Origin: Escherichia phage PSD2001
Strand: one strand, 5' to 3'
Sequence record: OK254198.1
DNA: 64,000 nucleotides
Positions 1,223 through 34,244 of this stretch are shown one piece after another (position 1 is the stretch's first letter; the number at the start of each line of letters is the position of its first letter). The notes under the pieces were generated by a model. The model made no database searches. It saw only the letters and a program-made list of their open reading frames with translations, and had not been told where the DNA came from. The position numbers and the translations under genes were made by a program.

Positions 1223-4200
1223 ATGATGAGTGTTAAAGCCCCTTATGTAACCAGCTTACGGATTGATAAACTATCTGCTAACCAGGTTAGCATAAAATGG
1301 GATAATGTTGGCGCCAACTTTTATTATTTTGTTGAGATTGCTACGACAAAAGAAAATGGTGTTGCTATTCCAGAAGAAAATCTGTTATGGAGGAATTTAG
1401 GTTATACTCCAGACAATGAATGGTTCGAACAAGATTTTATTCGTCCAGTATCATTTTACAAAATGCGTGTTGCTGTTGCAGCAATGGGTTTTGAACAATC
1501 TGATTGGGTTTATACCGAAGAATTTGAAACCTTTGCAACTAACGCATACACATTTGAACACATGCGTGAGTTTACATTAACAAATAAATTCATCGAAGAA
1601 AAATTTACAAACAATAACCAAGCTTATATCAACTTTAATAATGATGCAATTATGGCATCGCTGATGTCTGAAGATTTTAGCTTTACTCCTGCATATTCTC
1701 ATTTGTCTTCAATTTCAAACTATGTATTAAAAGAAGACCAATACCACGAAATCCAGGGTAGCATTCAGCCAGTATGTAACGATGTTAATCGTACGATGAT
1801 TGCTGAACTCGGTGGTGTACTGTATTTGTTTGAACGATTCCAGACAACTGTCAAAGTCTCCAATGATAAAGGGCAGAACTGGTATTATGTAAAATTGTTT
1901 AATGACCGCATCGGCAACCCAGTATCGCGCACAATTTATTATCAATCAGATACGACAACTTATGTACTCGGATATGACCGAATTTTTTACGGCCGCAAAT
2001 CAAGTGACATAAGATGGTCTGCTGATGATGTTCGATTCAGTTCTCAGGATATAACATTTGCAAAAATTGGTTCGGATATCAATCTCGGATTTGATATTGA
2101 AATATTTGGCACATACGCAAGACTCCCGGCATACATCTCGACAATCGCTGAAGCAATTACTACGACCGATTCCATGATTTATGTTGCTGGTCGTGACCGC
2201 GTATACAAGGCTAAATCTTCTGATGCTCCAATTGATAACGACCCTAACTCCCCAACATTCGGTGAAAAATTATTTGAAGCTGGATATAGCACAATAAGCG
2301 GCAACCCAAAAGCTGTTTGTTACAAGATGGATTCAATTGACGGTGAAGTGTTTGCATTAATCACGGGTGAAGTAAAGGAAGAACGTCAAGACCCGACTAA
2401 GCCTGAAAACGTTGTCGATTCATTATCAAAGGGCGTTTATAAATTAAATACCGATACCGATACATGGACACGAGTTTTTGGCAATACAGAGGATGAACGC
2501 CGTCGTATTGAACATGGTTACACAAGCATGTCAACTGATGGAATTGAACTTTTTATCAGTTCAAGTAACTTTCGCTATTCCGTTGAGCCAGATACCGAAC
2601 TCCCTGCTAAGTATCCTGAAGAAGTTAACGAAGCAGTCAAATATGTGTATGATGAACAATGGATACATGACAAGCATTATTTGATGATGAGTTTTAGGTC
2701 GAATAAAGATTCAGGTTGGGAAGAGTTTAAACCTGGACGTATGTCATATTACGCTGAACCGTTCTTTAACTGGTCTCGCCGTGATGATACTCGTTGTTGG
2801 ATTACCACATCAGACAGAGCTCTGGTTGTATATAATGACATGCTGTATCAAAAGATTATCGATACCTTTGGTGGTTCATCCCCTGAACGTATTGTGCACG
2901 AATACTGGAATAAAGGTCAAGTAAAAGTTACTTCTCCTAACATCGAATTCAATGGCTTTAAAAAATATGCCTCGGGTATTATGTTACATAAAAATACTGG
3001 TGAGCTTATTGGTTATTTTGAATTTGACTATCGTATGCGTGATGAAGTTAGATTAATCTGGAAACCGAAAGAAGTTATGTTCACTGCAGAATTACAGAAC
3101 CAGGAACATGATATTCCATGGACCCCGGATAATGATGAACAAGAGAAAGACCCGGACTTGCGTCCTCTTTTAACAAAGATGGTTCCGGATAGTTATTTGC
3201 TCCAGGATAGCAACTTCGAAAAATTCTGTGAATATTATTTACAGTTTATCAGTGATGGTTCTGGCACATATTATAACAACCTTTTGAACTTGATTCGCAA
3301 CCAGTACCCACGCGAGGAAGATGCATGGGAATACCTTTGGAGTGAAATGTACAAAAGAAATATATATTTGTCAAAGACCAAGCGTGACGAAGTAGTTCGT
3401 TTCTTTGAAGCAAGACAGTCTGATTTTTGGGCAACCAAGGGGACTGAAGCATCCTATAAGTTTTTATTCAAATTGTTATATAATGAAGACGTTGAAATCG
3501 ATATTGAATCCAAGAACGGAACCGAGTATGACATAATCGTCGAATCTGATAATATCAGCGAAGATATTGTTGGGCAAACAATTTACACACCAACTGGCCG
3601 CAGTAACGTTACCTATATGGAGCGTGACTACAAACAGGGTAAATTGAGATGGCGTATCACAATTCATAACTTGCTTGGTCGCTTTATTGTTGGGCAAGAA
3701 ATTAAATCCGAAAGGACTTCCTTTGAAGGCATGATTGTTCAGGGCGTTCGCGGGAAAGAATTACTTAGCAATAACATCGATTATATCAACCGAAATCGTT
3801 CTTACTATGTAATGACCATTAAATCAAGTCTCCCAACATCTCGTTATCGTAATGACGTATTGCGATTTGTTCATCCGGTTGGATTTGGATTCGTTGGAAT
3901 TACATTATTGACAATGTTTGTTAATGCTGGTCTGTCATTAAAACACACAGAAACCATTATCAATAAACTGAACAACTATCGTTGGTCGTCGGGTATTCCG
4001 TCAGAATGGTGTGACCGTATCGCAGTTATTGGAGCCGATGGAAACATTGAGCATAATGCTGTTACAGGCGAAGCAGTATATAATATTGCTCCTAACGCAG
4101 GTTTACCGTTCCCATTACCGGCAGATTATGATGCCGAAAACGATTTTTCAGATTTTCATGGGACTCTCCCGTCTGAACGTCGTAAAAAATACAGTCCATT

Positions 4201-16942: not shown

Positions 16943-18922
16943 ATGGCTTTATTATCTCCGGGCATTGAGCTCAAAGAAACAACGGTCCAAAGCACTGTTG
17001 TTCGTAACGCGACGGGTCGTGCGGCGCTGGTTGGTAAATTCCAGTGGGGCCCAGCTTTCCAGGTAACTCAGATTACAAACGAAGTTGAACTTGTTGATTT
17101 GTTTGGTGGCCCGAATAATGAAACAGCAGATTACTTTATGAGTGGGATGAACTTCCTGCAATATGGTAATGACCTCCGTACTGTACGTGTTGTTAACCGT
17201 GACGAAGCTAAAAACGCATCCCCTATTGCTGGCAATATTGAAACTACCATCGTAACTGCTGGTACAAACTATGCTGTCGGTGATGTTATTCAGGTTAAAC
17301 ACAACCAGACTGTTGTTGAACCGGCTGGCCGTGTGACCAAGGTCGACGTTGATGGTAAAATTCAGGCAATCTTTATTCCTACCGATAAGATTATTGCATT
17401 TGCCAAAACTATTAACCAGTATCCTAATTTAGGTAGTGCATGGACCGCAGAAGTTACGACCACTTCTTCCGGTGTATCTGGTACCATCACTGTCGGAAAA
17501 ATTGTTACTGATTCTGGCATTCTGTTGACTGAAGCAGAAAACAGTGAAGAAGCAATTACTTCTCTGGAATTCCAGGCATCATTGGCAAAATATGCAATGC
17601 CAGGTGTTGTTGCTCTTTATCCTGGTGAAATTGGTTCGACTCTTGAAGTTGAAATCGTATCCAAAGCTGAATTTGAAAAAGGCGCAACTGCAAATCTGGA
17701 TATTTTCCCCGGTGGTGGTTCCCGTGCTTCTATAGCTCGTGCAGTGTTTAACTATGGTCCTCAGACCGAAAACCAATATGCAATTATCGTTCGCCGCGAT
17801 GGTGCAATCGTCGAAAACGTTGTTTTGTCTACCAAGCAGGGCGAAAAAGATGTTTATGGTAATAACATTTACCTGGATGACTACTTTGCAAAAGGTACTT
17901 CCAACTACATCTATGCAACATCTCGCAACTGGCCTGTAGGCTTCAGTGGTATCATCAATCTGTCTGGTGGTATTTCTGCAAACGATAAGATTACCGCTGG
18001 TGATTTGATGCAAGGTTGGGACCTGTTCGCTGACCGTGAAGCTCTGCATATCAACCTGCTTATCGCTGGTGCAGTAGCTGGTGAAGGCGATGCGACCGCT
18101 TCCACTGTTCAGAAGCACGTAGTTTCTATCGCTGATGAACGTCAGGATTGCCTGGCATTTATCTCTCCACCGAAAGGTCTGTTGGTTAACGTTCCTCTGA
18201 CCCGTGCAGTGGATAACCTGATTGACTGGCGTACAGGTGCTGGTGCATTTGATACTGATAATATGAATATCAGCACGACTTATGCAGCAATTGATGGCAA
18301 CTATAAATATCAGTATGATAAATATAACGACGTTAACCGTTGGGTTCCTCTGGCAGCTGATATGGCTGGGCTGTGTGCTCGTACTGATGATGTTTCTCAG
18401 CCTTGGATGTCTCCGGCCGGCTATAACCGTGGTCAGATTCTGAACGTTCTGAAATTGGCTGTTGAACCACGTCAGACCCAGCGTGACCGCATGTATCAGG
18501 AAGCTATCAACCCGGTTGTTGGTTTCGCAGGTGGTGATGGTTTTGTTCTGTATGGTGATAAGACTGCAACTAAAGTTCCATCTCCGATGGACCATATCAA
18601 CGTTCGCCGTCTTACGAATATGCTGAAGAAAAATATCGGTGACGCATCCAAATATAAACTGTTTGAGCTTAACGATAACTTCACTCGTGCATCATTCCGT
18701 ATGGAAACTTCTCAATACTTGGATGGTATTCGTGCGCTCGGTGGCATTTATGAAGGTCGTGTGGTTTGTGATACTACTAACAACACCCCGTCGGTCATAG
18801 ACCGAAATGAGTTTGTTGCGAGCATTTATTTCAAACCTGCACGCAGCATCAACTACATCACGCTTAATTTCGTAGCAACAAGCACCGGTGCTAATTTCGA
18901 TGAGCTGATTGGGCCACAATAA
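16943..18922 (+). CDS. 18: Tail sheath protein gp18
   Basis: 659 aa, same length as T4 gp18; synteny. Confidence 0.93.
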   Translation: MALLSPGIELKETTVQSTVVRNATGRAALVGKFQWGPAFQVTQITNEVELVDLFGGPNNETADYFMSGMNFLQYGNDLRTVRVVNRDEAKNASPIAGNIETTIVTAGTNYAVGDVIQVKHNQTVVEPAGRVTKVDVDGKIQAIFIPTDKIIAFAKTINQYPNLGSAWTAEVTTTSSGVSGTITVGKIVTDSGILLTEAENSEEAITSLEFQASLAKYAMPGVVALYPGEIGSTLEVEIVSKAEFEKGATANLDIFPGGGSRASIARAVFNYGPQTENQYAIIVRRDGAIVENVVLSTKQGEKDVYGNNIYLDDYFAKGTSNYIYATSRNWPVGFSGIINLSGGISANDKITAGDLMQGWDLFADREALHINLLIAGAVAGEGDATASTVQKHVVSIADERQDCLAFISPPKGLLVNVPLTRAVDNLIDWRTGAGAFDTDNMNISTTYAAIDGNYKYQYDKYNDVNRWVPLAADMAGLCARTDDVSQPWMSPAGYNRGQILNVLKLAVEPRQTQRDRMYQEAINPVVGFAGGDGFVLYGDKTATKVPSPMDHINVRRLTNMLKKNIGDASKYKLFELNDNFTRASFRMETSQYLDGIRALGGIYEGRVVCDTTNNTPSVIDRNEFVASIYFKPARSINYITLNFVATSTGANFDELIGPQ

Positions 18923-18963
18923 TTATCATCGCTTAGAATTAATCAGTTAGAAACCGTAGAACC

Positions 18964-18992
18964 ATTATACAGTGTTATAAATAAAAGCATAA
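18964..18992 (-). promoter_or_regulatory. Middle-promoter-like element (MotA box ATGCTTTT, 13 nt spacer, TATAAT) antisense to the late genes
   Basis: Minus strand reads ATTATGCTTTTATTTATAACACTGTATAATGGTTCTACGG; same architecture as the uvsY and rnlB promoters in this window. Confidence 0.4.
18976..18983 (+). promoter_or_regulatory. T4-type late promoter (TATAAATA), distal copy upstream of gene 19
   Basis: Exact TATAAATA in the loop of the inverted repeat. Confidence 0.45.
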
Positions 18993-19062
18993 TCGGTTCT
19001 ACGGACTCCTGTGATTGATTCTGGGAAGCCATTATCTTGAGATGATGAATCATATTACCTAG

Positions 19063-19070
19063 TATAAATA
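19063..19070 (+). promoter_or_regulatory. T4-type late promoter (TATAAATA), proximal copy upstream of gene 19
   Basis: Exact TATAAATA 53 nt upstream of the gp19 ATG. Confidence 0.55.
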
Positions 19071-19122
19071 CATGCATCAGGGACGCGTTCACGCGACCTG
19101 TGTCTATAAAGAGGATTCCTTA

Positions 19123-19614
19123 ATGGAGTTGACCGATATCACACGTGCTTTCGAATCCGGCGACTTTGCTCGCCCTAACCTGTTCGAAGTCGAAATCCCA
19201 TTCCTGGGTAAAAACTTTGCTTTCCATTGTAAAGCAGCCCCGATGCCTGCTGGCATTGTAGAAAAAGTTCCTGTCGGTTACATGAACCGTAAAATCAACG
19301 TTGCGGGCGACCGTACATTTGATGACTGGACTATTACGATTTATAACGACGATGCTCATAAAGTTCGTCAAGCAATTGTTGATTGGCAAAATCTGTGTCA
19401 CGGTATGACTAACGAAATCACCGGTGCAGCTCCTGCTGATTATAAGAAAACTGCTACTGTCCGCCAGTTCCATCGTGATGGCAAGACCGTTACGAAAGAA
19501 GTTGTTATTACCGGCATGTGGCCAACCAACGTTGGGGAAGTCCAGATGGATTGGGACAGTAATAATGAGATTGAGACGTTCGAAGCGACGTTCGCAATTG
19601 ACTGGTGGGAATAA
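19123..19614 (+). CDS. 19: Tail tube protein gp19
   Basis: 163 aa from ATG at 19123 (AAAGAGGA RBS); near-identical to remembered T4 gp19 (TRAFESGDFARPNLF...); the upstream ATG at 19072 lies inside the promoter. Confidence 0.92.
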   Translation: MELTDITRAFESGDFARPNLFEVEIPFLGKNFAFHCKAAPMPAGIVEKVPVGYMNRKINVAGDRTFDDWTITIYNDDAHKVRQAIVDWQNLCHGMTNEITGAAPADYKKTATVRQFHRDGKTVTKEVVITGMWPTNVGEVQMDWDSNNEIETFEATFAIDWWE

Positions 19615-29033: not shown

Positions 29034-29132
29034 AATCTCTCACTTTTGATGTTATAAATATCATTATAAATTAGACCCACTATACTTTCTTTCTTTGAAA
29101 GGAATTAATAGTCGCAAAGGGGTCTAGAACCA

Positions 29133-29159
29133 TTATACCACAATTTTATTTGAAGCAAA
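29133..29159 (-). promoter_or_regulatory. Middle promoter for rnlB (MotA box TTTGCTTCA, 13 nt, TATAAT)
   Basis: Minus strand TTTGCTTCAaataaaattgtggTATAATGGTTCTAGACCCC. Confidence 0.55.
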
Positions 29160-29163
29160 AAGG

Positions 29164-34188: not shown

Positions 34189-34216
34189 AATGTATCCAAT
34201 GTAAGGGTCTAGAACC

Positions 34217-34244
34217 ATTATACAGCCATAAAATTAAAGCATTA
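34217..34244 (-). promoter_or_regulatory. Middle promoter for uvsY (MotA box AATGCTTTA, 12 nt, TATAAT)
   Basis: Minus strand TTAATGCTTTAAttttatggctgTATAATGGTTCTAGACCC in the 25-uvsY junction. Confidence 0.6.

Follow-up and report, generated by a model that had tools for sequence, protein, structure and literature searches.

The spacer between gene 18 (tail sheath) and gene 19 (tail tube) of Escherichia phage PSD2001 probably holds a minus-strand, MotA/AsiA-dependent middle promoter that points antisense to gene 18 and is overlapped by a plus-strand late promoter in the loop of a palindrome. The element was studied within a 64,000-nucleotide (nt) stretch of this genome (record OK254198.1), referred to below as the window, to which all coordinates apply unless another genome is named. 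In the arrangement that we propose, a perfect inverted repeat is the inner stem of the palindrome, and the A+T-rich loop holds two opposed, overlapping promoters. The minus-strand promoter would be used at middle times by RNA polymerase that AsiA has remodelled and MotA has brought in, and the resulting RNA, which would lack an open reading frame (ORF), would run antisense into the 3′ end of gene 18 and act either as the primer of an R-loop or as an antisense, "anti-late" transcript. The hairpin, in turn, would form in late mRNA reading through from gene 18, at the position that post-gene-18 stem-loops take in T4 and other relatives. We infer the activity and start site of the promoter, as well as the roles of its RNA and of the hairpin, from directly observed sequence matches, motif statistics, conservation pattern and fold stability. 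The window itself belongs to a Gaprivervirus (Straboviridae), that is, a VR7/VR20/SP18-like T4-type phage, and the region around the element is 98.5% identical to that of Escherichia phages TH41 and P479 and 92–97% identical to those of the Gaprivervirus phages VR20 (96% over the 18–19 region), VR25 and SP18.

A MotA-box/TATAAT arrangement on the minus strand

The minus strand reads GATTATGCTTTTATTTATAACACTGTATAATGGTTCTACGG, and ATTATGCTTTTATTTATAACACTGTATAATGGTTCTACGG, unique in the window, bears out the MotA-box/TATAAT arrangement that a first-pass annotation of this DNA had noticed. The layout, TTATGCTTTT-13 nt-TATAAT-GGTTCT-A (Table 1), follows the T4 middle-promoter consensus, in which (a/t)(a/t)(a/t)TGCTTtA, centred near −30, stands 12 ± 1 bp from a sigma-70 −10 element, TAtaaT (Hinton 2010, PMC2988021). 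The box deviates by a T in place of the final A, a variant present in 6 of the 25 motif-like sites of the genus composite listing, and T4 middle promoters are known to require an excellent −10 and to tolerate deviations in the MotA box (PMC2988021). The predicted start corresponds to the mapped T4 starts of PuvsY (T4 position 115371) and P34i (T4 position 153011), each of which is an A seven nt after the −10.

To place the motif in a genome-wide context, we scanned a composite genome in which VR20 supplies whatever lies beyond the window. The pattern TGCTTnn-(11–13)-TATAAT occurs there 15 times against 0.80 ± 0.97 in 100 dinucleotide shuffles, an approximately 19-fold excess, which argues that a match of this motif is rarely due to chance; 14 of the 15 matches lie on the early/middle strand. 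The element itself is unique in the window and is found at one place per genome record in the phage database, where it is confined to Gaprivervirus. A scan of viral contigs with the 14-mer GTATAATGGTTCTA as a specific probe was dropped after it returned at least 120 unrelated matches. As for the factors that such a promoter would use, motA and asiA lie outside the window and their presence is taken from the close relative VR20, which is annotated with motA (VR20_271) and asiA (VR20_264) as well as with the late factors gp55 (VR20_064) and gp33 (VR20_255).

The promoter would serve no gene of its own. In agreement with the first-pass annotation, no minus-strand gene lies downstream: genes 18, 17 and those upstream of them are all plus-coded, and the first minus-strand gene met in VR20 is gene 4, at a distance of approximately 23 kb. 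A 12-codon ORF at the 5′ end of the predicted RNA is lost in VR7.

Conservation in three genera of T4-type phages

We compared the element in 18 distinct Gaprivervirus sequences, namely the window and 17 relatives. The MotA box, the spacing, the −10 and the start are intact in all 18, with substitutions falling in the promoter spacer and in the region upstream of the box. Most of these phages, including the window, have the palindrome directly after gene 18; in VR7, RZ, DK-13, TH57 and DCP80, a 201-amino acid (aa) ORF, 19.1, stands between gene 18 and the palindrome, and there the inner hairpin is kept and the outer stem is formed from other sequences (CAGTAAATGTA with TACATTTATTG). VR26, the most divergent member, carries a 19.1 homologue downstream of the element and cannot be aligned on either flank. 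The block from ATTATA to AAAAGCATA (ATTATAC..TG.TATAAATAAAAGCATA) is nevertheless 94% identical, TATAATGGGTCTA is preserved, and the minus strand reads TTATGCTTTT-13-TATAAT-GGGTCT-A. Together, the kept block and the replaced flanks delimit a conserved unit that extends from the −10 to the MotA box.

To look beyond the genus, we compared the 18–19 spacer in 74 T4-type loci anchored on gp19. The strict motif is confined to Gaprivervirus, and orthologous minus-strand promoters are found in the same spacer of Dhakavirus and Marfavirus, 141–153 nt from gene 19. The Dhakavirus copy (JS98 group) reads CGCTGTA-13-TGgTATAAT-ggtttt-A and that of Marfavirus (Klebsiella phages) TGCTAAA-13-TATAAT-gacttc-A; the copies in VR7, VR26, JS98 and Marfavirus all share the 13-nt spacing, a perfect TATAAT and an A start, and C(G/C)GAT(T)TAT stands upstream of the box in all three genera. 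Differences among four Dhakavirus spacers spare the −10 and the box, and the GCTGT box variant recurs in the PuvsY of JS98 itself. The comparison of T4-like spacers thus finds the element in three genera and not in T4 or the other lineages sampled. The first-pass annotation had named conservation solely within the late leader of gene 19 as an outcome that would speak against its reading. The comparison shows the reverse: in JS98 and Marfavirus the minus-strand promoter is present without the late promoter motif TATAAATA that occupies the loop in the window, which argues that the minus-strand promoter, and not the late promoter in the loop, is the old, conserved feature.

Relationship to the uvsY, rnlB and gene 34 promoters

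The likeness to the uvsY and rnlB middle promoters of this genome that the first-pass annotation had pointed out proved stronger than described. The 13-mer TATAATGGTTCTA, which covers the −10 and the start region, is identical at all three sites on the minus strand (18957–69, 29125–37 and 34210–22), and from the box to +1 the element matches PuvsY at approximately 27 of 34 positions. A wider pattern, TATAATGGTyCyA, is common to five Gaprivervirus promoters, namely PuvsY, a promoter internal to gene 34, the rnlB promoter, the 18–19 element and a site on the plus strand of the gene 3–2 spacer; each of the five lies within a late-gene block.

Given its orientation and the lack of a gene of its own, the element appears to be the counterpart of T4 P34i (oriG), and judged by sequence its closest relative among known systems is the T4 oriG promoter. 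The T4 annotation gives oriG the minus-strand direction, with a primer RNA that runs opposite to the adjacent gene 34 and starts at P34i. Both are middle promoters in a late-gene block, antisense to a late gene and without a downstream gene, and the sequences compare as TGCTTCA-13-TATAAT-GGTCCC-A in T4 and TGCTTTT-13-TATAAT-GGTTCT-A in the element. However, oriG lies within a coding sequence and the element in an intergenic spacer, a palindrome surrounds the element, which also shares its site with a late promoter on the opposite strand, and origin activity, demonstrated for oriG, would be a candidate role for the element. A homologue of P34i/oriG is also found inside gene 34 of VR20 (approximately 151.66 kb, minus strand), where it reads ATTTGCTTCA-13-TATAAT-GGTCCC-A-GAGCG and is nearly identical to that of T4. 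The second system of interest is PuvsY, annotated as oriF in T4. From −10 to +1 the element is identical to the PuvsY of the window, with its start at the position mapped in T4; unlike the element, PuvsY also expresses a gene, uvsY, and lies outside structured DNA (z about −0.5). Furthermore, PuvsY has the near-palindrome GGTTCTAGACC centred on +1, in contrast to the element, where GGTTCTACGG has its complement 31 nt upstream.

These relationships matter because T4-type middle promoters are normally read as gene-expression signals, with oriF and oriG, which prime replication, as the known exceptions: the transcript of an origin promoter forms a persistent R-loop that primes replication, and a review of T4 replication counts the use of R-loops by other origins and the control of their formation among the open questions (PMC3016281). 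A putative middle promoter that is orphan, antisense and kept by three genera is a candidate origin or a candidate source of anti-late RNA. In the former case, the minus-strand RNA would stay as an R-loop over 18917–56, RNase H would trim it, and the trimmed RNA would prime leading-strand synthesis early in infection, a role that we consider possible but unlikely. It would fit the composition of T4 R-loop origins, a MotA-dependent promoter plus a downstream unwinding element, together approximately 100 bp (PMC3016281), the antisense orientation and gene-less state of oriG, the −10/start region shared with the oriF homologue PuvsY, the TATAATGGTyCyA pattern shared with the oriG homologue, and the fact that no ORF follows the promoter; most early T4 synthesis, moreover, begins inside late-gene regions according to the same review. 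The 40 bp that follow the predicted start rank among the least stable 5% of 40-bp windows (6% for PuvsY), but the 60-bp window downstream is ordinary (30th percentile), and this measure of stability is unremarkable for T4 oriF and oriG themselves. GC skew shows no inflection near 19 kb, which is a weak test in T4-type genomes, and the review describes no palindrome within the minimal oriF and oriG sequences (PMC3016281), which would leave the hairpin unexplained. A promoter is, in addition, necessary but far from sufficient for an origin, as most middle promoters are not origins, and we found no experimental origin mapping for Gaprivervirus, Dhakavirus or Marfavirus.

An extended form of the origin proposal, which we hold to be doubtful, is that Gaprivervirus, Dhakavirus and Marfavirus share an R-loop origin at this site and that it forms one class with the uvsY, gene-34-internal, rnlB and gene 3–2 promoters, marked by the start region TATAATGG(n)YCTA. 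The start region would then change in step among the paralogues of each genus (TCTAAGTCC in T4, CCTAGGTC in JS98 and TCTAGACC in Gaprivervirus), which, if that proposal were true, would speak for a factor specific to the genus, or for a constraint of structure, at the start site, and the palindrome would modulate firing or insulate late mRNA.

Several observations on these promoters can be made in their own right. The start region is a near-palindrome centred on +1 that differs between genera and is similar among paralogues within a genus: it takes the form given above for PuvsY in Gaprivervirus, GG(T/G)(C/T)CTAGGTC in JS98 and G(GG/AA)TCTAAGTCC in T4, at PuvsY and at the 3–2 site. This hints at gene conversion between the promoters or at a factor, specific to each genus, that acts where transcription starts. 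The gene 3–2 site is a near-consensus middle promoter on the plus strand (VR20 75139–75180) in the spacer between the minus-coded genes 3 and 2, and its orientation is antisense with respect to genes 2 and 4. The site is kept in Gaprivervirus, including VR26 (669–705 of the extracted locus), in JS98 (−10 at 74902) and in T4, where the plus strand reads ATAATGCTTTA-13-TATAAT-GGGTCT-A-AGTCC, with the −10 at 75988–93 and a predicted start at 76000; the DNA around the VR20 copy is structured (z about −3). At rnlB, the predicted mRNA 5′ end, AGACCCC, pairs with a GGGTCT approximately 46 nt downstream to give a 5′-terminal leader stem-loop (29040–29125, minus strand), and this GGGTCT belongs to a second, degenerate copy, TATAGTGGGTCTA, at 29072–84.

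The palindrome and the late promoter in its loop

The perfect 10-bp inverted repeat CCGTAGAACC/GGTTCTACGG, whose arms are separated by 31 nt, is present as the first-pass annotation had described it. By itself, however, we rejected it as a significant feature, as repeats of this kind occur at chance rate: the window holds six perfect repeats with a loop of at most 45 nt, against 3.8 ± 2.1 in dinucleotide shuffles. The repeat is the inner stem of a larger, imperfect palindrome of approximately 95 nt (18932–19025), which begins 10 nt past gene 18 and adds five inward pairs and a 14-bp outer stem (Table 1). The whole 18–19 spacer folds with z = −4.2 and the 120 nt around the promoter with z of −4.7 to −5.5 on either strand, so that the extended structure, and not the 10-bp repeat, exceeds chance; its minimum free energy is about −35 kcal/mol on the plus and −33 to −38 kcal/mol on the minus strand. 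Strongly structured DNA surrounds only 2 of the 15 middle-promoter-like sites, both of them orphan and antisense: this element and the plus-strand site in the gene 3–2 spacer. The left arm CCGTAGAACC is invariant in 17 relatives that carry the repeat. Stable hairpins also surround the promoter in VR7, JS98 and Marfavirus, each with different stem sequences; those of JS98 and Marfavirus reach z of −2.6 to −5.8, with stems unrelated in sequence.

The plus-strand late promoter TATAAATA that the first-pass annotation had placed in the loop is indeed there, and on the opposite strand it overlaps the promoter spacer and the last base of the MotA box. By sequence it has the attributes of a T4 late promoter, with TATAAATA in the sense of a late gene and gp55 and gp33 in VR20, and the motif occurs 19 times in the window, mostly on the plus strand, against 4.3 expected. 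It is found in the loop of all Gaprivervirus sequences examined and is absent from the JS98 and Marfavirus spacers. We therefore regard it as an extra, genus-specific late promoter that would act in addition to the proximal promoter at 19063; its transcripts are predicted to start at approximately 18989–91 and thus to lack the 5′ arm. As neither internal promoter would transcribe both arms, the hairpin would be limited to read-through RNA or to a cruciform in the DNA.

With respect to function, several candidates were rejected. The hairpin does not qualify as an intrinsic terminator, given its 31-nt loop, the lack of a U-run after the stem (the plus strand continues with ACTCCTG, the minus strand with TTTCTAAC), and a terminator scan without a site here. 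A switch that masks gene 19's ribosome-binding site is likewise rejected: the 3′ arm is 119 nt from the ATG, and both the Shine-Dalgarno sequence (19110–15) and the ATG are outside the hairpin in the predicted fold. In this respect the element differs from the hairpins of T4 I-TevI, segB, e and soc and of Aeh1 mobE, in which a late promoter lies inside a hairpin that sequesters the ribosome-binding site, such that late transcripts lack the 5′ arm and read-through transcripts fold (PMC2988022); the element also has its late promoter inside a hairpin, but its 3′ arm does not pair with the gene 19 Shine-Dalgarno and no translational switch is apparent. A search of 18600–19400 on both strands with Rfam 15 covariance models gave no match at E ≤ 1. 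As stem-loops with a late promoter inside or behind them occur after gene 18 in T4 and in another lineage, the simplest predicted role is that of a 3′ structure for the gene 18 message, combined with a distal late promoter for gene 19.

This role also forms part of an alternative in which only the plus strand matters, the palindrome being a stabilizer or processing site at the 3′ end of gene 18 mRNA and TATAAATA a second late promoter for gene 19, with the minus-strand "promoter" silent or a by-product of the A+T-rich loop. Were the minus-strand promoter silent, what is left would be an intercistronic hairpin of the ordinary kind and a second late promoter. The T4 stem-loop after gene 18 (GGCCTG...CAGGCC, then ATATAAATA) speaks for it, as does a further T4-type lineage (locus L178) with TATAAATA inside GCCGATATA/TATATCGGC after gene 18; so do the plus-strand enrichment of the late motif, the preservation of hairpins with different stems in VR7, JS98 and Marfavirus, and the outer stem, whose G·U pairs exist on the plus strand only and whose changes in relatives mostly keep the pairing. 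Yet a late promoter needs approximately 8 bp and a loop no particular sequence, and the box, the 13-nt spacing, TATAAT and the A start are kept in three genera, in VR26 without the hairpin and in JS98 and Marfavirus without TATAAATA. Nor would base composition lead one to expect 13 nt of identity with two bona fide middle promoters, and with no U-run after the stem the structure is no intrinsic terminator. On balance, we give this alternative a small share of the probability.

Points that weigh against a minus-strand promoter

A number of observations do not favour the minus-strand middle promoter in the form proposed here. The last position of the MotA box is off consensus, and the JS98 (CGCTGTA) and Marfavirus (TGCTAAA) boxes are further off. 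The conserved sites of the two strands overlap, so that the late promoter or the hairpin loop could account for part of the conservation. In VR26 the palindrome is replaced and no hairpin is seen (z about −0.8) with the promoter kept, which implies that promoter and hairpin need not be one functional unit. Covariation is weak: within Gaprivervirus the inner stem does not vary at all and hence offers no covariation evidence, and the outer stem shows one double, compensatory change and approximately 11 wobble-compatible single changes, mostly one-sided and from near-identical genomes. Plus- and minus-strand fold energies differ by ±3–5 kcal/mol in both directions, so that neither strand is favoured. 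The 18–19 spacers of T4 and the other sampled lineages contain no homologue of the element, and the curated T4 list has no middle promoter between gene 1 and rnlB. Finally, our literature search found no description of this promoter and no Gaprivervirus, Dhakavirus or Marfavirus transcriptome.

Mobile DNA and promoter stem-loop cassettes

The first-pass annotation had offered two explanations for the element. The first, a minus-strand promoter that would drive transcription antisense to the 3′ end of gene 18, is well supported at the sequence and comparative level, by virtue of motif statistics, paralogy and presence in three genera; the other, the relic of a mobile promoter cassette, is not supported, as the element is a single copy at a fixed site, orthologous in three genera, with or without ORF 19.1. 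In its fuller form, the latter would have the cassette copied from PuvsY or PrnlB, or left as the regulatory end of the HNH-like ORF 19.1. Paralogues with an identical −10/start region do exist elsewhere in the genome, the spacer is a hot spot for ORF 19.1, which is inserted upstream of the element in VR7, RZ, DK-13, TH57 and DCP80 and downstream of it in VR26, and antisense transcripts can arise from promoters that an endonuclease gene carries with it on invasion (Edgell review, PMC2988022). Against this, 24 of the 33 matching phage-database records have a spacer too short for ORF 19.1 and the element is still there, and the orthology in three genera with common upstream sequence argues that the element predates the ORF 19.1 insertions. 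The VR7 ORF 19.1, moreover, has a late-promoter hairpin of its own upstream, and a decaying relic would not keep a perfect −10, spacing and box everywhere. We consider an origin as mobile DNA, whether relic or passenger, highly improbable.

ORF 19.1 itself is free-standing, 201 or 227 aa long (VR7 locus 791–1396 and VR26 locus 2930–3613, respectively), and annotated as similar to T6 gp19.1. The VR7-group and VR26 versions are 35% identical, and Pfam gave no match for either at E ≤ 0.01; the designation HNH-like refers to a DH...N...N motif recognized by eye. In VR7, the late promoter of ORF 19.1 lies inside a GCGCGTAT/ATACGCGC hairpin just before the start codon.

A further class of cassette, the PeSL of RB49/phi1, T4/PST and KVP40/nt-1, combines a sigma-70 early promoter, with a −35 and A+T-rich upstream sequence, with an adjacent terminator hairpin containing a G/C tract, and recurs in many copies in the hyperplastic regions on either side of ORFans (PMC2839356, PMC4122927). 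The element resembles it as a short composite of promoter and stem-loop between genes of a T4-type phage, but is MotA-type, has its promoter inside the loop, and occurs as a single copy in a conserved block of virion genes; identification as a PeSL was rejected on three defining features. At the position of a −35, TTATGC matches TTGACA at two of six positions with 17-nt spacing, and the stem CCGTAGAACC is not followed by a U-run.

Features of the 18–19 region and neighbouring sites

The features discussed above are collected in Table 1 together with the surrounding genes, whose sheath and tube names follow the annotation of relatives. The proximal late promoter stands at the same offset from gene 19 in the Dhakavirus loci.

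Table 1. Positions in the window of the 18–19 element, its neighbours and its two paralogous promoters
Feature	Position	Strand	Sequence or remark
Gene 18, tail sheath	16943–18922	+	659-aa ORF; stop codon TAA 18920–18922
A+T-rich 40 bp	18917–18956		72% A+T; directly downstream of predicted minus-strand start; possible short unwinding element
18–19 spacer	18923–19122		200 nt between genes 18 and 19; element at spacer start
Outer stem	18932–18945 with 19012–19025		14 bp, CTTAGAATTAATCA with TGATTGATTCTGGG; three G·U pairs on plus strand
Left arm of repeat	18954–18963		CCGTAGAACC; minus-strand reading: GGTTCT (last 6 nt before start), predicted start A, +2 to +4
Predicted start	18957	-	A, seventh nt after −10; placed by alignment to mapped T4 PuvsY and P34i starts
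−10 hexamer	18964–18969	-	TATAAT, perfect, sigma-70-type; 13 nt downstream of MotA box
Distal late promoter, T4-type	18976–18983	+	TATAAATA; in hairpin loop, 140 nt upstream of gene 19 ATG
MotA-box-like element	18983–18992	-	TTATGCTTTT; 9/10 match to (a/t)(a/t)(a/t)TGCTT(t/c)A
Right arm of repeat	18995–19004		GGTTCTACGG
Inner stem			10-bp repeat plus five inward pairs, ATTAT/ATAAT
Proximal late promoter of gene 19	19063–19070	+	TATAAATA
Gene 19 leader hairpin	19078–19100	+	CAGGGACGCG...CGCGACCTG; between proximal late promoter and Shine-Dalgarno
Gene 19 Shine-Dalgarno	19110–19115	+	AGAGGA
Gene 19, tail tube	19123–19614	+	ATG at 19123
rnlB middle promoter	29125–29160	-	TTTTGCTTCA-13-TATAAT-GGTTCT-A-GACCCC
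uvsY middle promoter	34210–34244	-	TAATGCTTTA-12-TATAAT-GGTTCT-A-GACCC; positional homologue of T4 PuvsY = oriF

Antisense reading frames

Two reading frames on the minus strand deserve mention. An ATG-initiated antisense ORF of 338 aa in gene 18 (17579–18595) was considered as a hidden gene and rejected: it occupies the codon-aligned antisense frame, its translation is junk-like, and the antisense ORF measures 370 codons in the window, 287 in VR20, 148 in VR25 and 50 in T4. It is an artefact of codon usage and not a gene. A minus-strand ORF of 44–49 aa (18943–19092) spans the palindrome and both promoters and is called a "hypothetical protein" in some GenBank relatives (pEC-M719-6WT.2, UPEC07 and vB_YenM_P8); such calls across the palindrome are probably spurious, which is of practical consequence for annotation. 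In VR26 (2700–2800 of the extracted locus), a terminator-like hairpin, AGGGGA...TCCCCT, directly follows gene 18 and is succeeded on the minus strand by a U/A-rich tract; it lies approximately 40–60 nt downstream of the predicted minus-strand start, such that the antisense RNA there could be short, approximately 60–75 nt.

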